From Clostridiales bacterium DTU086 (GTDB lineage Bacteria; Bacillota; DTU086), in contig LFTO01000116.1 in NCBI GenBank assembly GCA_001513335.1, forward strand, positions 536-64,535: a DNA stretch of 64,000 nucleotides, in the 5' to 3' direction. Made by a program: the position numbers and the translations under genes. The notes under the pieces were generated by a model that had not been told where the DNA came from, searched no databases, and saw only the letters and a program-made list of their open reading frames with translations. The first letter of the stretch is position 1, and the number at the start of each line of letters is the position of its first letter. Of this stretch, positions 3,816 through 59,242 are shown piece after piece.

Positions 3816-3976
3816 TAGTAACTATAGTAAAATTAAGGCTGCGTCTTTAATGAAACCGGCTGTCTCTGTCCGCTTGTTTTTCAACGAAAAAGCTTTTCAG
3901 GCAAATTGAACAGTATCCAATTAATAAAATCCGGAGCATAAAAAAACACTTTATATATCTAAAAGGGGGGCATTTT

Positions 3977-5584
3977 ATGAAATTTGATTTAACAGACTAT
4001 CCCTATTCTTCCCAGCGGAGGTCTGTATATGCCCGAAATGGAATGGTTGCAACATCCCAGCCATTGGCTGCCCAGGCAGGTCTGGATATTTTGAAAAAGG
4101 GCGGAAATGCAATTGATGCGGCAGTTGCTACTGCTGCCTGTCTTACGGTGGTAGAGCCTACCTCTAACGGAATTGGCGGCGATGCATTTGCTCTCGTTTG
4201 GACCCAGGGGAAACTTTACGGCTTAAATTCCAGTGGGCCTGCTCCGGAGGCTCTCTCCCTTAATGTTCTTGAGGGATTAGGTATCAAAGAAATACCAAAG
4301 TACGGGTGGATACCGGTAACTGTTCCCGGTGCACCGGCTGCCTGGCAGGAATTGTCCTCTCGCTTTGGCAGGCTGCCTCTGACGGAGGTTTTGGACCCGG
4401 CCATTAGGTATGCGGAGGAGGGGTTTCCTGTTTCTCCAACTGTAGCCTTGCTGTGGAAGAGAGCCCATAAAAACTTTACAAAAAGTCTTCAGGGGCCAGA
4501 ATTTAAGCACTGGTTTGAGACGTTTACTCCCAAGGGGAGAGCGCCGGAAGTGGGAGAGATTTGGTCTTCCAAGGGACATGCGGAAACCCTAATGTCTATT
4601 GCAGAAACTAAAGCCCAGTCATTCTACAGGGGAGATATTGCGGAGAAAATCGACCGGTTTTCCAGGGAATTCGGTGGTTATTTAAGAAAGAAGGACCTGG
4701 AAAATTTCCAGCCGGAATGGGTTGAACCTATAAGTATTAACTACAGGGGATATGATGTCTGGGAAATACCCCCTAACGGTCACGGCCTTGTGGCACTTAT
4801 GGCCTTAAACATATTAAAAGGATTTGATTTCGAGTTCAAGGAATCTCCGGAAACATACCACAAACAAATTGAAGCTATGAAACTGGCCTTTGTTGACGGC
4901 TTGAAATATATCGCTGATCCGGCGCATATGAGTATCCGTGTTGAGGATCTTCTCTCAGATGCCTATGCCGAGGAAAGAAGAAGGCTGATCGGAAAAGAGG
5001 CATTGCAGCCTGAACCTGGCACCCCGCCCAAGGGAGGAACGGTATACCTGGCAGCCGCCGATGGTGAAGGAAATATGGTTTCATACATTCAAAGCAATTA
5101 CATGGGTTTTGGTTCGGGTTTGGTAGTTCCCGGAACAGGAATCTCCCTGCATAACCGTGGAAACAATTTTTCCCTGGATCCCTCTTCTGACAATGTCCTT
5201 AAGCCAGGAAAGAGACCTTACCATACAATAATCCCCGGGTTCCTGACAAAGGACGGGCAAGCTGTAGGGCCCTTTGGAGTAATGGGAGGTTTTATGCAGC
5301 CCCAGGGGCATGTCCAGGTTGTAATGAATACCGTGGATTTTGGGCTTAACCCCCAGGCGGCTTTAGATTCCCCAAGATGGCAGTGGAAGAAGGGTAAAAC
5401 CGTAGAAATAGAACATTCATTCAAAAAATACATTGCCGGTTGTCTCAAAGAAGCCGGACATGACATTCAATACAATGTAGATTCAAGCGGTTTCGGTCGA
5501 GGGCAGATTATTTGGAGAACTGAAAGCGGTGTCCTAATCGGCGGATCTGAGCCAAGGACCGATGGAGTTGCTGCTTCCTGGTAA
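3977..5584 (+). CDS. ggt: gamma-glutamyltranspeptidase
   Basis: 535 aa. Start ATSQPLAAQAGLDILKKGGNAIDAAVA, catalytic Thr region GGTVYLAAADGEGNMVSYIQSNYMGFGSG, C-terminal GGSEPRTDG. These are typical GGT-family signatures. Confidence 0.85.
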   Translation: MKFDLTDYPYSSQRRSVYARNGMVATSQPLAAQAGLDILKKGGNAIDAAVATAACLTVVEPTSNGIGGDAFALVWTQGKLYGLNSSGPAPEALSLNVLEGLGIKEIPKYGWIPVTVPGAPAAWQELSSRFGRLPLTEVLDPAIRYAEEGFPVSPTVALLWKRAHKNFTKSLQGPEFKHWFETFTPKGRAPEVGEIWSSKGHAETLMSIAETKAQSFYRGDIAEKIDRFSREFGGYLRKKDLENFQPEWVEPISINYRGYDVWEIPPNGHGLVALMALNILKGFDFEFKESPETYHKQIEAMKLAFVDGLKYIADPAHMSIRVEDLLSDAYAEERRRLIGKEALQPEPGTPPKGGTVYLAAADGEGNMVSYIQSNYMGFGSGLVVPGTGISLHNRGNNFSLDPSSDNVLKPGKRPYHTIIPGFLTKDGQAVGPFGVMGGFMQPQGHVQVVMNTVDFGLNPQAALDSPRWQWKKGKTVEIEHSFKKYIAGCLKEAGHDIQYNVDSSGFGRGQIIWRTESGVLIGGSEPRTDGVAASW

Positions 5585-6705: not shown

Positions 6706-8529
6706 ATGAAGCAGCAAAACTTAAGAAATATAGCCATAATTGCTCATGTTGACCATGGCAAGACTACTTTAGTGGACCAGCTCTTGAAGCAGAGCGGTTT
6801 TTTTCGCAAAAACCAGGTAATGCCCGACAGGGTGCTGGACAGCAACGAACTGGAACGAGAGCGGGGAATTACTATTCTGTCCAAAAATACAAGCATCCAG
6901 TATAAAGGCACAAAGATAAATATCGTTGATACCCCAGGCCATGCTGACTTTGGCGGCGAGGTAGAGCGCATTGTAAATATGGTGGACGGGGTGTTGCTCC
7001 TGGTTGATGCCTTTGAAGGGCCTATGCCCCAGACCCGCTTCGTGCTGAAAAAAGCCCTGGAAGCCAGGCTTAAACCGATTGTAGTAATCAACAAAATAGA
7101 CCGGCCGGGTGCCAGACCCCTGGAAGTAGTGGATGAGGTACTGGACCTGTTTATCGATTTAGGTGCCGATGATGAGCAGCTGGAATTCCCTGTAATTTAT
7201 GCTTCAGCCAAAAAGGGATACGCCAGTTCCGACTTGGACAGTGCCGGAACGGATATGGCACCCCTGCTGGATTTGATTATTTCGGCAATTCCTGTCCCCC
7301 AGGGGGACGAGACGGCTCCTCTGAAGCTGGTCATTTCCTCTATCGATTATGACAGCTACATTGGGAGGATCGGTGTTGGGAAAATAACCCGGGGCAGCAT
7401 TTCCAAAGGGGAGGAAGTGGTCCTCTGCAATCCCTATGACAAGCAGGTAAAGGTAAAGATAAGCAGCCTGTATGTTTTTGAGGGTCTAAAGAGAGTGGAG
7501 GTGGAAAGGGCCTCTGTAGGTGAAATTGCTGCCGTATCAGGCATTGAGAATTTAACCATCGGGGATACCATTTGTGACCCTGAAGTCATCGACCCGGCAC
7601 CCCTGCTCCACATTGATGAACCTACTCTCTCCATGAATTTTGTAGTGAATGACAGTCCCATGGCGGGACGTGAGGGAGAGTATGTTACCAGCAGGCATTT
7701 AAGGGAACGTTTGGAACGGGAACTTCTCTCCAACGTTTCCCTGCAGGTTGAGGAAGTAACACCGGATTGTTTTAAGGTATCGGGACGCGGGGAACTGCAT
7801 TTGTCCATACTGATTGAAACCATGCGCCGGGAAGGGTATGAGTTTGCCGTGACCAGGCCGGAAGTAATAACCAAATTTGTGGACGGCGTTTTATGTGAAC
7901 CGGTGGAAAGGCTCTTTTTAGAGGTGCCCTCGGAGTATGTGGGAACGGTAATTGAAGGCCTTGGTACCCGCAAAGGTGAAATGGTCTTTATGGGCAGCAG
8001 CGAGGGGAGCACTACAAATATGCAGTTTTTGATCCCTGCCCGGGGGCTTATCGGCTACGCTTCCGAGTTTATTACTGAGACCAAAGGGAACGGCACCATG
8101 AGCCACACCTTTGAAACCTACGAACCCTATAAAGGGGATATTCCCGTGAGGACCCGGGGGGCTCTGGTAGCTTCGGAAGCAGGAATATCGGTAGCTTACG
8201 GTCTCTATAACGTACAGCAGAGGGGCAGCTTATTTATCGGTCCGGGAGTTGAGGTATACGAAGGAATGATTGTTGGGGAAAATTCACGCAGCGTCGATAT
8301 TACCGTCAATGTCTGCAAGAAAAAACACCTCACCAATACACGTTCTTCCAATGCGGATGAGGCTCTTACCCTTACACCTCCGGTGATTATGACTCTGGAA
8401 AAGTGTATGGAGTTTATCAAGGAAGATGAGCTCCTGGAAGTAACACCTAAATCTCTGAGGCTGAGGAAGATGATTTTAAACAAAGATGCCCGGGTAAAGG
8501 CTGGGAAAAAGAGGAATCAGGCTTCCTGA
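6706..8529 (+). CDS. typA: translational GTPase TypA/BipA
   Basis: N-terminus [20 protein letters not shown]; G-domain motifs DTPGHADF and NKIDR; 607 aa, typical of BipA. Confidence 0.9.
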
Positions 8530-18116: not shown

Positions 18117-18929
18117 TTGCATTCCAGAGGAATAAAACTTTTTATGCTTGTTATGGCCATTGCGGCGCTGGCGTTTTTTTATAACTGGCTCTGCAATGGG
18201 GAAACAAATGGAAAAGCAGTAAAAACCCAGCAGGAATTTGTGACCATATATGCGGAAACGCCATATGATGCAATATACCAATACTACAAAGCCCTGGAAG
18301 GCAACAATTGGGATCTGGTAAAATCCTTAACTACGAAAAGTATGTGGAATTACATTGAAAAGTCGGGCTTTAGAAAGAGTTGGGAAAGGAAAATTTCAGA
18401 AGACCCTACCCTAAAATTTCTTCTGTTTATCGTGAAGAAGCAGTCAATCGATGAGGAAGAGGAAGAAGGCTGGGTCATGGGAAAAGTGGATTGGACTTCC
18501 GAACGCAGGAATGTTCCTGATGATAACCGCATTGTGTATGTGGAAAAGGACAAGGAGTCATGGGTTATTTCCCGTATTTTAACCCTTCCTGCAGTTGAGG
18601 TAGTAGATGATTTCTATGAGGCGATAGGTATAGGGGACTTTGCCCGGGCCGAGACACTTACCACCAGAAAATATTGGAAAAGACTGGTTGCTGCAGGCAT
18701 TATTGATGATATTCAAAAAGAAAGGTTAAAAAATCTAAAGGGACTTTACGTAGTTTTTTTGGTAGAGGACTTTTCCGAAAAGCCTAATGAAGCCTGGGTT
18801 TCAGGAGACGTTACTTTTCACCCTTTGGAGCGGCAGCAGAGGGAAGTTTCAGTTAATGTTCATGTTGTTCGGGAAAACAAGGAATGGAAGATTGACAAAA
18901 TCGTAGGCCATTGGGATATCGCCAAGTAA
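18117..18929 (+). CDS. hypothetical membrane-anchored/secreted protein
   Basis: N-terminal hydrophobic helix followed by two repeated, roughly 110-aa halves. No identifiable family. Confidence 0.45.
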   Translation: MHSRGIKLFMLVMAIAALAFFYNWLCNGETNGKAVKTQQEFVTIYAETPYDAIYQYYKALEGNNWDLVKSLTTKSMWNYIEKSGFRKSWERKISEDPTLKFLLFIVKKQSIDEEEEEGWVMGKVDWTSERRNVPDDNRIVYVEKDKESWVISRILTLPAVEVVDDFYEAIGIGDFARAETLTTRKYWKRLVAAGIIDDIQKERLKNLKGLYVVFLVEDFSEKPNEAWVSGDVTFHPLERQQREVSVNVHVVRENKEWKIDKIVGHWDIAK

Positions 18930-19056
18930 GATTTCGTTTATTCTAAAAGGTTGGAGGGTTCAGGGTCTAAAGGGCCTTAAGCGAGGCGGTTGTACTAGCG
19001 TTTAGAGGTCCGGTGGGCTCCTTGCCGGTGCAAAGAAGTTCTCAATACTGGGATTA

Positions 19057-19169
19057 CGAAAGCCCGTATGTATTATGGAATAGACTTGTTTCTGTTAAGC
19101 CTTGGGCGGCTTTGCCGTCGTTAACGGCGTGGGAGCTTGTCTGTAAGGAAATTATACATACGCTTAGCG
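19057..19169 (+). repeat. copy 1 of a ~113-nt imperfect long-hairpin element (structured ncRNA or MITE-like)
   Basis: The outer stem pairs CGTATGTAT...ATACATACG around an internal GGCGGC-TTT-GCCGTC hairpin. It is about 80% identical to the reverse complement of 42713-42826. Confidence 0.7.
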
Positions 19170-19418
19170 AAGAAAACGGTTGGGACCAGTGTCATCCGCA
19201 AGGGTTTACCGGAGGATCTCAGAAGCGAAGCGATGGTATTAGCACTAAAGATCCGGTGTATTGCTTGTGCGGGTGCATCGGTGCCCTCCAGATGAATCGT
19301 TTTCCCGAGTAGTTCGACGGGCGAAATTGTTCAAAATAAAAAGGAGAAACAGAAGTATATCTGTCCTCCCCTGCTGTGCAATTTTCCATTTAAAGACGCT
19401 GCTTTCCTGCCGTGGGAA

Positions 19419-36864: not shown

Positions 36865-36890
36865 GGGACCCTTTCACGGGTCTTTTTTGT
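36865..36890 (+). terminator. intrinsic terminator
   Basis: GACCC-TTTCAC-GGGTC followed by TTTTTTG. Confidence 0.65.
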
Positions 36891-42238: not shown

Positions 42239-42673
42239 TTGAAAACGATTAGAGAAAATGTATCTTACCTGCAGGGATTGGTTGAAGGAGTCAACCTGAA
42301 CGCTACAACTAATGAAGGACGTGTTATCAAAGGTATTATTGATACAATAGAGTCCCTGGCGGAAGCTGTTGAACGGCTTGAAGGAAGGCAGTCGGATTTG
42401 GAAGTTTATCTTGACAGCCTTGATGAAGAGCTGATGGATATTGAGGAAGAGATTTATCGGAGTGAGGGCGAAGGGTACGTTGAAATGGAGTGTCCCGAGT
42501 GTCATGAAGTTGTATACTTTGACACGGATATTTTAGATAGTGAGGATACCATCGAGGTTACCTGCCCCAACTGCGACTCGGTGGTTTTTGTGAACAGTGG
42601 GGACTATGATTTTACTCCTGACAGTTTGGAAACTGAACACGTTCAGGATGGTGATAAAGAAATTCTTCAATGA
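42239..42673 (+). CDS. acidic zinc-ribbon protein (two CxxC pairs), hypothetical
   Basis: TTG start with a GGGAGG RBS. CPECHE...CPNCDS zinc ribbon. Very acidic. Confidence 0.55.
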   Translation: MKTIRENVSYLQGLVEGVNLNATTNEGRVIKGIIDTIESLAEAVERLEGRQSDLEVYLDSLDEELMDIEEEIYRSEGEGYVEMECPECHEVVYFDTDILDSEDTIEVTCPNCDSVVFVNSGDYDFTPDSLETEHVQDGDKEILQ

Positions 42674-42712
42674 ACTATAGAGCTTTGTTTAAATGTTGAC
42701 GCACCTGATTGC

Positions 42713-42826
42713 ATAAGCCCGTATGTATTATTCCGCTTACGGACAAGTTCGCACACCGTTAGCGGCGGCAAAGCCGCGCAGGGCTTAAGCGATACAAGTC
42801 CCGTTCCACAACACATGCGGGCTTTC
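42713..42826 (+). repeat. copy 2 (inverted orientation) of the ~113-nt long-hairpin element
   Basis: Its reverse complement aligns with 19057-19169 at about 80% identity, including the inner GCGGC-AAA-GCCGC hairpin and the AAGCCCG/CGGGCTT termini. Confidence 0.7.
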
Positions 42827-42982
42827 AAAAAATGTTTTGAAATGTCTCAAATTGGAACTACCTCCCATTCTGCTGTTGCCGTTCCAGTTTGTACTTCCAC
42901 TTTGTCAAGAGCTTAACCTTATGCTCATAAGTCGTTTGCAAAAGCAAAGGAAGCAATTCATATGGTTTGTCGACAGTTAGGA

Positions 42983-43008
42983 CTGCGGAAATCCGCAGCT
43001 TTTTTTTT
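42983..43008 (+). terminator. intrinsic terminator upstream of spoIIIAA
   Basis: CTGCGGA-AA-TCCGCAG followed by T9. Confidence 0.85.
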
Positions 43009-43061: not shown

Positions 43062-44075
43062 ATGATCTCTCTATCCCTGAAGGAAACAGAAAAAAGTTCC
43101 GAATGCAGCATTGATGCGGTTTTGGCTGCTGTTTGTCCTTCCATTATAAAGGATTTTTTAATGAAAATGGCTCCGGAACAAAGGAATCAAGTACAGGAAC
43201 TGCGCCTGAGACAGGACAGGCCTTTAAGCATTTTGCTGGACCAACGGGAATGTTTCTTAACGGTGAAGGGAGAGCCGACCTTTGACCCCCTGGCAGGGTA
43301 TTACATTACCAAGACCGATATTGATAGAGTCTTTCAAAGCATTACCCGCAATTCCGTATACGCCCTTGAGGAAGAACTGCGCAACGGCTATGTGACTATT
43401 GCCGGGGGCCATAGAATCGGGTTTACAGGAGAAGCTGTGGTTGTAGGGGGAAAAGTAAAAAACCTGAAAAATATATCTTGCCTCAATATCAGAATTGGGA
43501 GAGAGGTAAAAGGCTGCGCAGATAAAGTTCTGCCTTGGATAATTAACAGGCAGAATAATGCAGTTATGCACACACTAATTATTTCACCGCCAAAGTGCGG
43601 AAAGACAACCCTTCTCAGGGACATTATCCGGCAGTTAAGCAACGGTATACCCAAGCTTGGTTTCCCTGGTGTCAATGTGGGCGTAGTGGATGAAAGATCG
43701 GAGTTGGCCAGTTGTTACATGGGCCTTCCTCAAAAAGAAATAGGCATTAGAAGTGATGTCCTGGATAAATGTCCCAAAGCGGAAGGAATGTATATGCTGG
43801 TACGTTCCATGTCCCCACAGGTAATTGCCACTGATGAAATCGGGAGAAGGGAAGATGTGGCTGCAGTTCAAGAAGTCCTTAACGCAGGAATCAAATTGAT
43901 TACATCCGTTCACGGAACCAACCCGGAAGATATAAAACGGCGGCCTGTAATGGGAGAGATTATGGATATGCAGTTGTTTGAGCGACTGGTCGTTCTTGGG
44001 AGGTCCCAAGGGGTAGGTACTTTGGAAGAAGTGATCGATGGGACTACAGGAAGATCTTTGTTTCAAAGAAGGTGA
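43062..44075 (+). CDS. spoIIIAA: stage III sporulation protein AA (ATPase)
   Basis: Walker A SPPKCGKTTLLRD. Conserved SpoIIIAA layout. Confidence 0.9.
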   Translation: MISLSLKETEKSSECSIDAVLAAVCPSIIKDFLMKMAPEQRNQVQELRLRQDRPLSILLDQRECFLTVKGEPTFDPLAGYYITKTDIDRVFQSITRNSVYALEEELRNGYVTIAGGHRIGFTGEAVVVGGKVKNLKNISCLNIRIGREVKGCADKVLPWIINRQNNAVMHTLIISPPKCGKTTLLRDIIRQLSNGIPKLGFPGVNVGVVDERSELASCYMGLPQKEIGIRSDVLDKCPKAEGMYMLVRSMSPQVIATDEIGRREDVAAVQEVLNAGIKLITSVHGTNPEDIKRRPVMGEIMDMQLFERLVVLGRSQGVGTLEEVIDGTTGRSLFQRR

Positions 44076-45212: not shown

Positions 45213-46396
45213 GATTGCTTATGAAAAGACTAGTCATTTTTTTGGTAATAATATCTAGTACATTGCTTTTTCCTGTTAGTGCTCCAGCACAGGAAGAAAC
45301 GGATCTGCCGGCCACAAACCTGGAGAGGCAGCTCGAAAGCCTCGACCTTTCCGAGCTCCAGCAGTTTATTGAGGAAATTGAAAAGGATGTGGGTTCATAT
45401 ATTCCCGATTTTGGTCTGGAGAGTGTGATTGAGGACATTCGCAGCGGAGATCTTGACTTTAATTTTGCCGGTTTTATAAAAGGCTTAATAGAATACTTGT
45501 TTCATGAATTAATTGCCCATTCTTCCCTTTTAGGCCGTTTAGTAGTTCTGGCAGTAATCTCTGCCGTCCTATATAACCTTCTTGATGCCTTTGAAGGTTC
45601 GACAGGTAGAATAGCTTACACTGTTGTCTATCTTGTACTGATTACTATTGCCCTGGGGTCATTTTCTGCTGCTGTAAAAATCGGGAGTGAGGCAATTACC
45701 CAAATGGTGAATTTTGTACAAGCGCTCCTTCCTGTCCTGTTGACCCTTCTTGCGGCAATTGGGGGTATCAGCTCTGCGGCTATTTTACATCCTTTTATTA
45801 TTGTTGCACTGGGCCTTCTAGGAACACTGATAAAAAATTTTGTGTTTCCTCTGATTTACCTGTCAGCAGTACTGGGAATTGTAAACCATATTTCTGAAAG
45901 GTTTAACGTTTCACGGCTTGCAGGTCTGATGAAACAAATCAGCGTTGCTTCTTTAGGTATTTTCCTGACTCTTTTTGTGGGTTTTTTAGGTTTACAGGGG
46001 ATAGCCGGTGCCGTTGCTGACAGTGTGACGTTAAAAACTGCCAAATTTATGGCAGGGACATTTGTCCCCGTGGTTGGGAAAATACTGGCCGATGCCACGG
46101 AAGTAGTACTGGGTACTTCACTGTTGATAAAAAATGCTGTTGGAGTTGTAGGAATAGTAATCCTGTTTATTATTTGTGTTTTTCCGGTGATCAAGATTAT
46201 AGCCATGGTGCTGGTCTACAGGCTGGCGGCAGCTTTGGTACAGCCTATAGGGGATAGCAAAATTGCCGGAGCCCTTGATACAATGGCAGGTATGCTTACT
46301 CTGGTATTTGCCTCGGTTGTAGCAGTTGGATTCATGTTTTTCCTGGCAATTGCAGTAATTATCGGACTGAGCAATATTAACGTTATGCTGAGGTAG
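45209..46396 (+). CDS. spoIIIAE: stage III sporulation protein AE
   Basis: Signal peptide plus a polytopic membrane domain. 395 aa. Operon position. Confidence 0.85.
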   Translation: MRLLMKRLVIFLVIISSTLLFPVSAPAQEETDLPATNLERQLESLDLSELQQFIEEIEKDVGSYIPDFGLESVIEDIRSGDLDFNFAGFIKGLIEYLFHELIAHSSLLGRLVVLAVISAVLYNLLDAFEGSTGRIAYTVVYLVLITIALGSFSAAVKIGSEAITQMVNFVQALLPVLLTLLAAIGGISSAAILHPFIIVALGLLGTLIKNFVFPLIYLSAVLGIVNHISERFNVSRLAGLMKQISVASLGIFLTLFVGFLGLQGIAGAVADSVTLKTAKFMAGTFVPVVGKILADATEVVLGTSLLIKNAVGVVGIVILFIICVFPVIKIIAMVLVYRLAAALVQPIGDSKIAGALDTMAGMLTLVFASVVAVGFMFFLAIAVIIGLSNINVMLR

Positions 46397-48349: not shown

Positions 48350-48378
48350 TTGCATAAACCTACATAGGTTTATATAAT
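48350..48378 (+). promoter_or_regulatory. sigma-A promoter TTGCAT-17-TATAAT with a perfect palindrome AAACCTA-CA-TAGGTTT in the spacer (candidate operator)
   Basis: Hexamers at 48350-48355 and 48373-48378. The palindrome lies at 48356-48371. Confidence 0.5.
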
Positions 48379-54904: not shown

Positions 54905-55155
54905 CAAAAGAAACCAACGAGTTAAGTTTCGATGCCGCGTTAAAAGAGCTCGAGGACAGAGTTAAAAAGCTGGAAGATGGGCAACTTCCCCTTGAAGAAG
55001 CTCTTGAGTGTTTCAAAGAAGGCATCTATTTAGTAAGAATATGCAACTCAAAGCTGAAAGATTCTGAAACAGTTATCCGGCAGCTGGTTGAAGAAGAGGA
55101 CGGCAGTATCAGCGAAACCGTGCCGGAAATAAACCGGGGCGGTGATTTTAATTGA
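54889..55155 (+). CDS. xseB: exodeoxyribonuclease VII small subunit
   Basis: 88 aa. FDAALKELEDRVKKLEDGQLPLEEAL. Confidence 0.9.
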   Translation: MEEELTKETNELSFDAALKELEDRVKKLEDGQLPLEEALECFKEGIYLVRICNSKLKDSETVIRQLVEEEDGSISETVPEINRGGDFN

Positions 55156-56036
55156 ATATCAAGGAATACCTTGCAGAAAAGAAAGCAGTAATTGATGCGG
55201 CGCTAGATGAAATTCTTCCTGCAGAAGATGTTAAACCGCAGACCATTCATAAGGCAATGCGCTACAGCGTTTTTGCCGGCGGCAAAAGACTGCGGCCTAT
55301 TCTGGTAATGGCTTCCGCAGAGGCCGTGGGCGGAAAAGGTAATGATGTCCTCCCTGCAGCCTGTGCATTGGAGATGATACATTCATATTCCCTTATTCAT
55401 GATGACCTACCAGCAATGGATGATGATGATTACCGGCGGGGGATGCTTACCAATCATAAGGTATTTGGGGAGGCAATGGCTATCCTGGCGGGGGATGCCC
55501 TCCTGACCCATGCCTTTTATGTTCTTTCTCATTGCTTAAAATATTTTCCAGCTGAATCAGTTAACCAGGTTGTTGGTGAGGTTTCGAAGGCTGCCGGTAC
55601 TTTTGGAATGGTTGGCGGACAGGTGGTCGACATTGAGTCAGAGGGAAAAGACATTTCCAGGGAGGAATTGGATTATATTCATGAAAATAAAACTGCGGCC
55701 CTTTTTGTAGCTTCCGTCCGTACAGGGGGAATTCTTGCAGGTGCGAACAGCGTACAGATGGACGCTCTGACTGACTACGCAAGGCACCTGGGGCTGGCAT
55801 TTCAGATTACTGATGATATTTTAGACATCACCGGAGATTCCGGCAAACTGGGCAAAAATACCGGGAGTGATACACGCAAAAAAAAGGTAACTTTTCCTCT
55901 TCTTTACGGTCTTGAAGAGTCAAGAAAAATGGCACTGGATGAGAGTAGAAAAGCTGGAGAAATTGTCCGGACACTGGGCAACAGGGCAAAGCCCCTGGAA
56001 GAAATTGTCCTTTATTTGGTTTCAAGGGACTTTTAG
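55152..56036 (+). CDS. ispA: farnesyl diphosphate synthase (geranyltranstransferase)
   Basis: FARM LIHDDLPAMDDDDYRRG and SARM FQITDDILD motifs. Confidence 0.9.
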   Translation: MNIKEYLAEKKAVIDAALDEILPAEDVKPQTIHKAMRYSVFAGGKRLRPILVMASAEAVGGKGNDVLPAACALEMIHSYSLIHDDLPAMDDDDYRRGMLTNHKVFGEAMAILAGDALLTHAFYVLSHCLKYFPAESVNQVVGEVSKAAGTFGMVGGQVVDIESEGKDISREELDYIHENKTAALFVASVRTGGILAGANSVQMDALTDYARHLGLAFQITDDILDITGDSGKLGKNTGSDTRKKKVTFPLLYGLEESRKMALDESRKAGEIVRTLGNRAKPLEEIVLYLVSRDF

Positions 56037-56081: not shown

Positions 56082-56087
56082 ATATCC

Positions 56088-56748
56088 TGTGTAAATAGGG
56101 GTGGCGCAGTATTCTAGTCAAGTTTCATTACTCTGAAGGCGGGCCTAAAAATCCGTCAAAGGGCACATCGATGAAGTTCCTGGTGGTGGCTGCTGACGCC
56201 CAGTCGGGGGTTGCTGCTGGGAGTTAAGGGGTTGGGGCGATCTGCAAAGGCATGCAGGCGTTGACCCTAGCCCCGTGGAGACCCAAGTGCGTGGTGCAAA
56301 AACATATATTTTGATTACGGCTTGGGAGTAAACCTGTATTCGGTACGGAATAGTGCTGGGTACAGTGTAGCCTGCCTTGAGCGGCTCTGGCGGAGACGCA
56401 GAAAAAGGCAGTTATTGGGAGAGGCCTAACCCAATGATTGTCTTGGTTGAAACCTTTGCTGCAAAAGAGGCTAGGAGTAAATGCAACTTGTTGAAGAAAA
56501 TTCCTAGACTGTTTGCTTCGAAAGGCAAGGTGTGTCAGGGATTAAAGTGTGTGCTAAGTGGTAATCCAGTCCTGCTATCAATAGCAGACCTTTCCTTAAA
56601 GGGAAACCGCTGTTTCGGTGACGGGCAGTGGAAAGGTGGGAAACCCTGCTGGACCTAAGCCGCAAAGTTTACCTGACTCACTGCCACCCGGATACGAGAA
56701 TCCTAAAGACGGGGATAGGCTTCCTCGTCTTTCGTTCTATGTGCGGTA
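56088..56748 (+). ncRNA. probable OLE RNA (ornate large extremophilic RNA)
   Basis: About 660 nt with no credible ORF, lying between ispA and an OapA-like membrane gene followed by dxs. This is the known OLE context. It has its own strong promoter and ends in a hairpin GACGGGGA..TCCTCGTC followed by TTTCGTTCT. I did not verify the sequence motifs from memory. Confidence 0.6.
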
Positions 56749-56783: not shown

Positions 56784-57374
56784 TTGAAAGGGAACATCTT
56801 GCCCCATGCACTTAAAAACGGAATCTTAATAGGACTTGGGACATTAGTTTTGTCCGTTATTTTTAATTTAGGGTCACAATTTATGTTGGACTTTCTCCAT
56901 TCTATTATTTTTAAATTTATTCTTTTATTTATCATTATACTTATAGGAGTGTTTTTTGATATTATTGGGGTTTCAGCTGCAGCGGCAAGTGAAGGTCCAG
57001 CCCATGCACAGGCAGCAACCCGAACATTTGGTGCCAGGCAAGCGGTTAAAATAATACGCAACGCAGATCGTGTCTCCAGCTTCTGTAATGATGTTGTTGG
57101 AGACGTGTGCGGTATTTTAAGCGGGGCAATTGGTACTGCTATTCTTTTTGAACTGATATTAAATTCTGGAGGTGTGGAGGAGCTGGTTTTTAGCACCTTG
57201 ATGACTGCCTCAATTGCTTCTGTAACTGTTGGTGGAAAGGCTGCTGGAAAAAGTTTTGCTATTGCTAATGCCAACGATATAATACTAAAGGTAGGAATGT
57301 TCATGGCGGTTATAGAAAGAACACTTGGAATCACCCTGTTTGGCAGTGGAGTGAAAAAAGGGAGGACAAAATGA
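56784..57374 (+). CDS. oapA: OapA-like small polytopic membrane protein (OLE-associated protein A candidate)
   Basis: 196 aa with about 4 TM helices, directly between the putative OLE RNA and dxs. TTG start. Confidence 0.55.
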
Positions 57375-59242
57375 GCTCTATTTTGGATAAGGTGAACAGT
57401 CCTAAAGATCTAAGGCACCTGTCCACCGCGGAAATTAAACAGCTGGCACAAGAGTTAAGGAACTTAATAATTGAGACAGTATCTCATACAGGGGGGCATT
57501 TAGCTTCCAGTTTGGGAGTAGTTGAACTTACTTTGGCTTTACACAGTGTATTTGACACACCTAAAGATAAAATAATCTGGGACGTTGGCCACCAGTGCTA
57601 TGCACATAAAATTCTCACCGGTAGAAAAAACTCCTTTTCTACCCTTCGACAATACGGCGGCATAAGTGGTTTTCCAAAGCGGGAAGAGAGTATTTTTGAT
57701 GTTTTCGAAACCGGCCACTCCAGCACTTCAATATCTGCTGCCCTGGGAATGGCACTTGCCCGTGACCACAAAGGTGAGGATTATAACGTTATAGCAGTTA
57801 TCGGAGACGGCTCACTGACCGGAGGAATGTCTTTTGAGGCTTTGAACTATGCCGGTGATTTAGGATGCAACCTTATTGTGGTCCTCAATGATAATAAGAT
57901 GTCAATTGGCAGGAACGTAGGGGCATTATCCCAGTATTTGAGCCGGTTAAGAACTGATCCGGCCTACTTTAAAAGTAAAGAAGAAATGGAAGTCTTCATG
58001 AAACGCCTGCCTTACGGCCACCGATTCCTCAAGTTGGCAGAAAGACTGAAAGATGGAATAAAGTACCTTATTATACCGGGCATCATCTTTGAGGAACTGG
58101 GGTTTACCTACCTGGGACCTATTGACGGCCATGACCTTGAGGCTGTAAAATCTGTCCTCTCCAGCACCAAAACCCTTAAAGGGCCTGTAATAGTTCACCT
58201 GGTTACCAAAAAAGGTAAAGGTTATCCTCCGGCGGAAGAAAAACCTGACCTGTTTCACGGTGTTGGTTCCTTTGCTGTTAACACAGGAAAACCGACAAAA
58301 AAGGAAGGACCTCCCACATATACAAAAGTGTTTGCTGACACTTTAATCAGGTTGGCAGAAAACAGACCGGAAGTTGTCGCTATTACTGCGGCCATGCCCG
58401 GGGGGACAGGGTTGGATTTATTTGCAAAACACTATCCTGAAAGGTACTATGATGTAGGGATTGCAGAGCAAAACGCCGTTACAGTTGCCGCAGGAATGGC
58501 TTCCCAGGGCTTAAAACCTGTGGTTGCTATTTATTCTACTTTTTTGCAAAGGGCATATGACCAGGTGATCCATGATGTATGCATGCAAAAACTCCCCGTC
58601 GTTTTTGCCCTGGACAGAGCAGGTATCGTGGGAGAAGACGGGGAAACTCACCAGGGAGTATTTGATCTGTCCTACCTCAGGCCAATTCCCAATATTGTGG
58701 TAATGACTCCGAAAGATGAAAATGAACTCCGGCATATGCTGGCTACTGCTCTCGACCACGAAGGGCCAATAGCTGTCCGCTATCCCAGAGGAAAGGGAAT
58801 AGGAGTACCTCTGGATGAGGAAATTACTTCTATCCCCATTGGGAAAGCCGTTGTAGAAAAACAGGGGAGTGATGCGGCTATATTTGCCGTTGGCCCCCAT
58901 GTATATACAGGTCTGGCAGCCAGCGATGAATTGTCGCGAATAGGAATCAGTGCGGGAGTTGTCAACTGCAGGTTCGTTAAGCCTTTGGACTCCCAACTGA
59001 TTATCGAAACTGCCCGTAAGGTAAAGCTGATCGTGACTGTAGAAGAAAACGTTTTAGGCGGGGGTTTTGGCTCCGGAATACTGGAACTGTTGACCCAGCA
59101 TGGTATTGACAACGTGTCTGTCGTAAGAATCGGGTTGCCGGACTGCTTTATCCAGCATGGTGCTCCTGACATATTGCGTAAGGAATTTGGTCTTACAGTG
59201 GAGTCAATTGTCAATACTATAAGCGACAGGCTGGGATCTTGA
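57371..59242 (+). CDS. dxs: 1-deoxy-D-xylulose-5-phosphate synthase
   Basis: TPP motif [15 protein letters not shown]; the start [13 protein letters not shown] is typical of Dxs. 623 aa. Confidence 0.95.

Follow-up and report, generated by a model that had tools for sequence, protein, structure and literature searches.

A probable family of MITE-like elements with a conserved internal hairpin in uncultured spore-forming Bacillota

Background

The direct repeats that flank MITEs decay with age, and MITEs are known to nest in each other (PMC10969869). Two groups of insertion sequences are described as choosing inverted repeats as their targets. IS1630 (IS30 family) of Mycoplasma fermentans is reported to target inverted repeats of variable sequence and to duplicate 16-26 bp (PMC3317919; PMC2853133). 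IS1272 and TnSha1 (IS1182 family) enter the hairpins of terminators in both orientations; part of the target is deleted and none of it is duplicated (PMC4923244). The same source gives palindromes as the reported targets of other IS1182 members. For the IS110 family, PMC12288879 describes structured non-coding RNAs (e.g. Ssr9 of ISPpu9) that can occur apart from the recombinase gene, and insertion sequences that enter palindromic repeats.

Here a pair of long hairpins from a 64,000-nt stretch of DNA of an uncultured member of the Bacillota is compared with these systems. This stretch, at its full length, is called the window, and its first-pass annotation, made from the sequence alone, had proposed either a small structured RNA family or a mobile hairpin of the MITE or REP type.

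Sequences and searches

Family members were collected by blastn, by core-pattern scans, with a covariance model (R1) and from loci fetched via neighbouring proteins; about 0.4 Mb of related DNA was examined. Coordinates without a prefix refer to the window, and those with an L number to related loci. The two window copies are referred to as copy 1 (W1) and copy 2 (W2), and the strand of each copy that corresponds to the plus strand of copy 1 is termed the F strand.

The repeat pair in the window

Copy 1 (19057-19169) was aligned by blastn within the window to 42826-42720 on the opposite strand with 81.3% identity over 107 nt (E = 4.3e-23), in agreement with the initial claim of a ~113-nt repeat in opposite orientations that lies beyond chance. 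A MAFFT alignment of both copies agreed with blastn, and the same search with 19057-19169 returned no third copy within the 64-kb window. Both copies are intergenic and lie 3' of plus-strand genes, as first described. The conserved central hairpin was located by R1 at 19059-19167 (+) in copy 1 (104.7 bits, E = 9e-23) and at 42715-42825 (-) in copy 2 (109.5 bits, E = 6e-24).

Both copies share the same long imperfect hairpin fold. The minimum free energy was -35.4 kcal/mol on the plus strand and -25.6 on the minus strand for copy 1, and -47.2 kcal/mol on the F strand and -43.3 on the other for copy 2; the F strand, which folds better, is thus the window plus strand at copy 1 and the minus strand at copy 2. 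Compared with shuffled sequences, both strands of both copies were all more stable (z = -2.1 to -4.8).

The motifs listed in the first-pass annotation were recovered with one exception. The outer stem CGTATGTATTAT/ATTATACATACG was found at 19065-19076 and 19151-19162 (92% complementary), the apical stems as GGCGGC-TTT-GCCGTC in copy 1 and, in copy 2 (plus strand), as GCGGC-AAA-GCCGC, together with the GTTAAGC/CGTTAACG motifs. The termini AAGCCCG/CGGGCTT, which had been ascribed to both copies, are both found in copy 2, whereas the 3' terminus of copy 1 reads CG--CTT, two bases having been lost. The second hairpin noted at 19218-19263 exists; in a fold of the whole insert, this segment pairs with the left arm near 19005-19035 instead.

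Family members in related genomes

The earlier proposal to search genomes for more copies was fruitful, as copies were found in a sister organism (L011:3952-4061) and in another uncultured member of the Bacillota. The list of further copies comprises a full copy at L009:3345-3454 with a decayed inverted neighbour at L009:3211-3317 (32 bits), copies at L007:3162-3270, L010:31-133 (L010a) and L032:2477-2586 (L032a), and half-copies at L032:~7800-7865 and ~8150-8190. All further copies lie in long intergenic regions beside housekeeping genes. The second organism was reached by a metagenome scan that returned four LFRM01 contigs, otherwise without nucleotide similarity to the window. Copy density amounts to two in the 64-kb window, one in 42 kb of the sister organism, and at least five loci plus fragments in ~30 kb of the second host, whose contigs were partly chosen by search pattern.

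Beyond these hosts, the first core pattern gave 0 matches in 185,579 species genomes of GTDB. A looser core pattern gave 9 matches in the same 185,579 genomes, all of them attributed to chance and without blastn similarity; they include Verrucomicrobiae, Marinomonas and Prevotella, and the match in L022 (a Bacillota MAG) apparently falls in coding sequence. Three scans of viral contigs (core pattern, arm B, hairpin 3' half) gave 0 matches, and the whole copy 2 and L011 inserts were unmatched by blastn in 72,556 plasmids. Application of R1 to more distant relatives (L014, L015, L017, L018, L030, L031, L033-L036) yielded no copies, and ~200 kb from more distant relatives of both hosts is without copies. 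Full-text searches of the literature returned no paper describing the element.

Locus L032 joins L008 and the end of L010 as two halves of one locus, the assemblies of which broke inside the hairpin, and L004 and L006 begin inside the copy 2 insert. Independent metagenome assemblies also end within the element at window position 42948 (in the segment called module B below), at L008:1646 and at L010:1 and 10623. Assembly breaks of this kind are expected in a multi-copy or polymorphic repeat.

In the 488-nt intergenic region L010:6938-7425, a weak hairpin match was obtained at 7295-7363 (72% over 74 nt, E = 1e-4); judging from this similarity, it is probably one more decayed copy.

Filled and empty sites

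The sister organism (JGI 3300053716, contig Ga0534105_01946) is close enough for site-by-site comparison with the window (SpoIIIAA 94% identical, and the 270-aa protein beside copy 1 97% identical), and it is without either window copy at the corresponding sites. At copy 2, the spacer between the gene for a 144-aa protein and spoIIIAA measures 388 nt in the window vs 100 nt in L011, L012 and L013. On the left, the flank matches the sister sequence as far as TGAACT (42676), and on the right the match resumes with GACTGCGG (42981); the whole insertion occupies 42677-42980, that is 304 nt vs 15 unrelated nt in the sister. Immediately beyond it lies a native intrinsic terminator (42981-43008, +; GACTGCGGAAATCCGCAG then a T run), detected by a terminator scan, which is kept at the empty site in L011, L012 and L013; the end of the element abuts its 5' base.

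At copy 1, homology to L028 stops at 18929 and resumes at 19319, which delimits a block of 389 nt (18930-19318, +) vs 57 nt in L028/L029. These 57 nt contain the hairpin GGAGGCGTGAAGCCTCC. Copy 1 may tentatively be described as having split a target hairpin, the halves of which would be GGAGGG (18953-18958) and CCCTCC (19284-19289); the global alignment that placed copy 1 in the split target hairpin was not decisive.

The reverse situation was found in the sister organism, where a 251-nt family member (L011:3842-4092) is inserted between an AMP-binding gene and tldD, a position at which the window has no insert. Its flanks, 3826-3841 and 4093-4108, both read GGACCCTTTCACGGGT and form a perfect 16-nt direct repeat. 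This repeat is a duplicate of the single terminator stem-loop found at window 36866, where the empty target site (36866-36888, +) consists of the terminator hairpin GGACCCTTTCACGGGTC and a T run. At a fourth site, L032 has ~345 nt between the stop codon of a UPF0180 gene and the terminator vs 59 nt in L035 and 12 nt in L036; in L035 and L036 the terminator is directly 3' of the gene, and their YyaC proteins are 72% and 70% identical to that of L032.

Presence/absence polymorphism was therefore observed at 4/4 comparable sites, with target duplication only at L011. As for the target-site duplications suggested earlier as a check of the MITE hypothesis, the perfect 16 nt at L011 speak for it and window copies 1 and 2 have none; convincing flanking direct repeats were likewise missing at L009, L007 and L010a. 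At window copies 1 and 2, some target sequence has been replaced rather than simply interrupted. At three loci with an empty-site comparison (W2, L032a and L011), the outer end of the element is immediately adjacent to an intact terminator hairpin, at its 5' base. By these alignments, the copies are shown to be insertions scattered over intergenic regions 3' of genes, with close relatives differing in whether an orthologous site is filled.

Structure, covariation and strand bias of the hairpin

The ~110-nt hairpin is the sole module common to all copies. Its consensus consists of four helices with 38 pairs, and the apical region TAAGCC.TG...GGCT..GCCG.CG.TAACGG.GTG is invariant among copies. 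In the 7 full copies, standard pairs occupy 94.2% of pair cells. Double-sided changes were counted at 8 pairs (for example GCCCG/CGGGC replaced by GGCCG/CGGCC) vs 4.4 +/- 1.3 in shuffles, a value reached by 6/500 of them, and the covariation score was reached by 1/500 shuffles. Shifting the pair partners by 1-3 columns destroys the pairing. The G-U-type replacements pointed out at first pass are borne out in the seven-copy family, with 25 G-T vs 3 A-C cells in consensus pairs on the copy-1 plus strand; 15/25 of the G-T cells fall at three fixed positions, and the variable ones number ~10 vs 3 A-C. Folding energy was lower on the F strand in 7/7 copies, by 3.6-12.9 kcal/mol. This argues that the single-stranded form of the F strand matters, or did so in an ancestor (n = 7 related sequences).

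The 38 pairs kept through compensatory changes, the preponderance of G-U over A-C cells on one strand and the constant identity of the better-folding strand all favour conservation of the hairpin for a role as structured non-coding RNA. It would be a multi-copy sRNA, or would act in cis in the 3' UTR as a stem-loop that terminates transcripts or makes them more stable, and mobility would only spread it. The hairpin is also conserved above the arms, across subfamilies and hosts; its stem base reads AAAGCCCG...CGGGCTTT on both strands and resembles a weak bidirectional terminator; and at L032 the F strand lies in a sense 3' UTR, between stop codon and terminator. Such an RNA is nevertheless considered unlikely. 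At copy 2 and L011, the F strand is antisense to the genes on both sides, and where it is sense the genes converge on the site, which makes any orientation sense to one gene, so that there is no rule of orientation with respect to genes. A conserved promoter upstream of the hairpin was not seen, the left arms vary by subfamily, and the promoter scan was blank on the F strand. Rfam 15 gave no match on either hairpin, at the gathering threshold or at E <= 10, in line with the failure of the first-pass annotation to assign a known family, and the T tract 3' of the stem has only 3-4 T. In addition, compensation and strand bias can also come from single-stranded DNA or from inherited ancestral G-T pairs, and in seven related copies may result from inheritance or palindrome-directed repair.

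An intrinsic terminator is a short GC-rich stem followed by a U tract. This reading was rejected for the element itself, as the terminator scan was silent at both hairpins and the stem is followed by the short T tract given above. Weak Rfam matches to OmrA-B, SCARNA20 and DUF3577 fall on the native terminator region and were discarded as chance.

Arms, ends and nesting of the element

The inserts measure 251, 304, ~345 and 389 nt, and their alignment indicates that the mobile unit is ~250-390 nt long rather than the 113 nt first taken as the repeat, with the hairpin as an internal module and not as terminal inverted repeats. The central unit of copy 2 (42690-42851, -) comprises the hairpin with ~25-30 nt of conserved flank per side (...TTCCAA..CATTTTTTG / ATGCAATCAGGTGCGTCAACATTTA); it is 82% identical over 164 nt to L010:3-158, and similar matches were obtained to L010/L032 and L008. 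The arm of copy 2 (42852-42980, +), composed of a spacer and module B (42900-42980), ends ...GGTTTGTCGACAGTTAG against the native terminator. It is 88% identical over 77 nt to L010:10355-10431 and aligns with arms on the other side of the hairpin in other copies.

Two subfamilies were distinguished. In the first (W2, L010a, L032a and L032b), ~25-30 nt are common on each hairpin side, and the ~130-nt arm (spacer and module B) ends ...GCAAAAGCAAAGGAAGCAATTCATATGGTTTGT(C/T/G)GACA; in the inverted-arm form, the ~130-nt repeats terminate ...TTTGTCGACA. This arm is 3' of the hairpin in L032a, and reverse-complemented and 5' of the hairpin in W2 and L032b; a three-way alignment of the L032a right arm with the reverse complement of the L032b and W2 left arms extends over ~130 nt. 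In the second subfamily (L011 and L032c), a 110-nt right arm ends GATTTTGTCATCAAGCTG, and the left arm of L011 is 32 nt long and starts TGTCAGTAGTCTGACA. For the kind of end other than the L011 type, the pair would read TGTCGACAAACCATATG... / ...CATATGGTTTGTCGACA, and the terminal inverted repeats of L011 are weak (~10/18 positions match, by eye). The arms of copy 1 have diverged and could not be aligned with the arms of the other copies; they pair mutually in the minimum free energy fold.

No single copy with both long arms was seen in ~0.4 Mb of related sequence, and any 'full-length' element is therefore a reconstruction. The simplest reading is an ancestral palindromic element, built as arm, centre and inverted arm, with only one of its arms retained in any surviving copy; a centre that was inverted, or inserted independently, is the competing view.

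The 650-nt intergenic region L032:7672-8330 is a nest of at least three fragments, the first with an inverted arm B, spacer, left flank and hairpin 5' half, the second with a partial arm B, and the third with a hairpin 3' half and an L011-type right arm.

Alternatively, the 160-nt central unit could be an element in its own right, with other hairpins and the middle of a second, palindromic MITE (made of the B arms) as its insertion sites; the longer units would then be nested composites of two families. The orientation of the central unit relative to arm B is opposite in W2/L032b and in L032a, L010a, L009 and L007 carry the hairpin without a recognisable B arm, nesting occurs at L032:7672-8330, and the middle of a palindromic MITE is where an element that targets hairpins should insert. 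This composite origin is nonetheless judged quite improbable. Arm B never occurs without the hairpin in the ~0.4 Mb examined, the opposite orientations are equally explained by one palindromic element losing either arm, and in L011 the hairpin and a B-like arm moved together as a unit, with one target duplication.

Module B carries a Shine-Dalgarno-like AAAGGAAG with an ATG 8 nt downstream (window 42945-42975), and its tip an outward-facing near-consensus -35 hexamer (TCGACA in the window, TTGACA in L032). The short ORF that follows the ATG is not conserved (26 codons in the window, 3 in L010). These features may be a relic of the end of a parent IS.

Hosts and neighbouring genes

The genes beside the copies are all ordinary chromosomal genes and encode a Na/Pi cotransporter, YyaC, thiamin pyrophosphokinase, a tRNA synthetase and an ABC transporter. 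No transposase or recombinase was found among the neighbour genes of any copy, nor was an autonomous partner found within ~0.4 Mb of related sequence, plasmids or viral contigs.

In the window, Rfam 15 detected OLE RNA (56085-56703) and two tRNAs, and the spoIIIA operon begins at 43062; the combination of OLE RNA and this operon points to a spore-forming anaerobic member of the Bacillota as the source. Genes identical to those of the window were found solely on short contigs from metagenomes. Among named organisms, the closest SpoIIIAA is that of 'Clostridia bacterium 41_269' (59% identity), and identity to Desulfotomaculia is ~55%. No genes shared between the second host and the window organism were found in the sequence compared, which makes the relative placement of the hosts impossible and leaves vertical descent and horizontal transfer inseparable. 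Both hosts occur in JGI sample 3300060680.

Several further observations were made on these contigs. The OLE RNA (+ strand, 513.7 bits) is full-length and lies between ORFs 55152-56036, 56784-57374 (membrane-protein-like) and 57371-59242 (long), whose sequences suggest genes like ispA, oapA and dxs; the arrangement would then be that of a typical OLE locus. OLE is a known family and has no connection with the hairpins. In two other assemblies of the same organism (L001 and L002), window 46388 is joined to the reverse complement of 48357, with a 6-nt microhomology (TTATGC, window 46383-46388 and 48352-48357) at the junction; L003 and L004 are collinear with the window. Either part of the population carries the spoIIIAF-AH segment inverted, or the junction is a chimera of assembly. 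The 144-aa protein (42239-42673, +) is acidic, with two CxxC pairs and no Pfam match on record; it is syntenic between efp and spoIIIAA in the three closer relatives examined (L011-L015), and none was called in L017. At L011:7529-8600 in the sister organism, the M24 peptidase gene is called as two overlapping pieces (183 and 180 aa) vs one 356-aa gene in the window lineage, likely as the result of a frameshift or sequencing error.

Interpretation

The hairpins are probably the conserved internal module of a small, non-coding, non-autonomous MITE-like family of ~250-390 nt, carried by the chromosomes of a few uncultured spore-forming Bacillota. Of the two readings offered at first pass, an RNA family or a MITE/REP-like element, mobility is supported by filled and empty sites in both directions, by the 16-nt duplication, by decayed and nested copies and by the assembly breaks. 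As in MITEs, the units are under ~500 bp, contain no conserved reading frame and occur as dispersed copies.

Under this interpretation, a transposase acting in trans would recognise hairpin or cruciform DNA and not a sequence. It would cut at both stem bases with a stagger equal to the length of the stem-loop, and repair would then duplicate the hairpin, as in IS1630. Older copies would lose one arm and the duplicate hairpin through deletion, and the central hairpin would be kept by selection or palindrome-directed repair. The hairpin could serve as a single-stranded binding site for a transposase or host factor, or as an RNA stem-loop in a host 3' UTR. The window copies, without duplication and with the target partly lost, would fit either an IS1272-like event or a later deletion of arm and duplicate.

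It is also conceivable, with a rather low probability, that the invariant loops and apical stem of the hairpin form an RNA or single-stranded DNA cofactor, or a recognition structure, for an undescribed hairpin-targeting recombinase that cuts both bases of the target stem-loop, and that terminators are therefore duplicated. If true, the MITE would carry an insertion system guided by structure and not by sequence.

An origin of the copies from duplication of part of a gene, or as a palindrome arisen by chance, can be practically dismissed, since the ORFs that cross them (19013-19312, +, 99 aa; 42667-42828, -, 53 aa) have partly similar translations only because the underlying DNA is similar, indels between the copies break the frame, most differences are non-synonymous, copies at other loci occupy unrelated intergenic contexts, and chance is excluded by the E value of 4e-23. 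The absence of coding signal reported at first pass is thereby upheld, and the outcome that it had named as contrary to its reading (no further copies, and a coding fragment) is contradicted on both counts.

In the annotation of such uncultured Bacillota, oversized intergenic regions 3' of genes and breaks in metagenome assemblies are explained by the element, which also calls for caution, as structure and covariation alone are insufficient to call a hairpin a novel sRNA gene. It also provides a second, independent-looking case of an insertion that targets a terminator stem-loop and is able to duplicate it. Other reports of this behaviour concern mainly IS1630, along with IS1272, which does not duplicate its target. 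If a partner enzyme is found, the family would become a tractable case of structure-directed target choice.

Comparison with known systems

Three classes of structured element were compared and set aside. Integron attC sites are defined by RYYYAAC / GTTRRRY core sites at the hairpin base, after a cassette ORF; here the stem base is AAAGCCCG/CGGGCTTT, and the only GTTRRRY-like motif is internal. REP and BIME sequences are palindromes of 20-40 nt, often arrayed, with a RAYT transposase; the REP part of the initial proposal was abandoned on size, as the present hairpin is ~110 nt long and occurs in single units of 250-390 nt. The IS110 bridge RNA and Ssr9 resemble the hairpin in being a structured non-coding module with internal loops. 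A bridge RNA should carry guide loops that fit a fixed donor and target, and a 16-nt duplication is not expected for IS110; here unrelated terminators are entered while the loops do not vary, and no recombinase gene is nearby.

With IS1272 and TnSha1 of staphylococci, the two window copies have in common that some of the target is missing and no duplicate is left. These elements are autonomous or composite and encode a transposase. The L011 copy of the present family does have a perfect duplication, and the likeness is one of insertion behaviour. IS1630 is reported to target and duplicate inverted repeats (Calcutt et al. 1999), and the L011 insertion, with its duplicated 16-nt stem-loop, is similar in this respect. 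IS1630 is autonomous, with 1.2-1.4 kb, 27-bp terminal repeats and a transposase gene, whereas the present family is gene-less and no partner was found; IS1630 duplicates its target, whereas two of three sites here are without duplication.

The prokaryotic MITEs (ERIC, Correia/NEMIS, RUP, BOX, SPRITE, bcr1 and QMITEs) are likewise small, non-coding, multi-copy and intergenic, and they share with the present family a stable stem-loop, presence or absence among strains, direct repeats that are lost with age, clustering and nesting (PMC10969869). In contrast to them, this family has no sequence or Rfam similarity to described members, is so far confined to a few uncultured Bacillota, and has as its one target duplication a whole 16-nt terminator hairpin and not 2-9 bp. 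Two features would be less ordinary, each seen in only a handful of loci: the duplication of the terminator hairpin, and an internal hairpin conserved above the ends, most MITEs showing the opposite. Ordinary MITE biology leaves one feature unexplained, the conservation of this internal hairpin. The family is new but belongs to a familiar kind of element, and is better seen as such than as a novel type of RNA gene.
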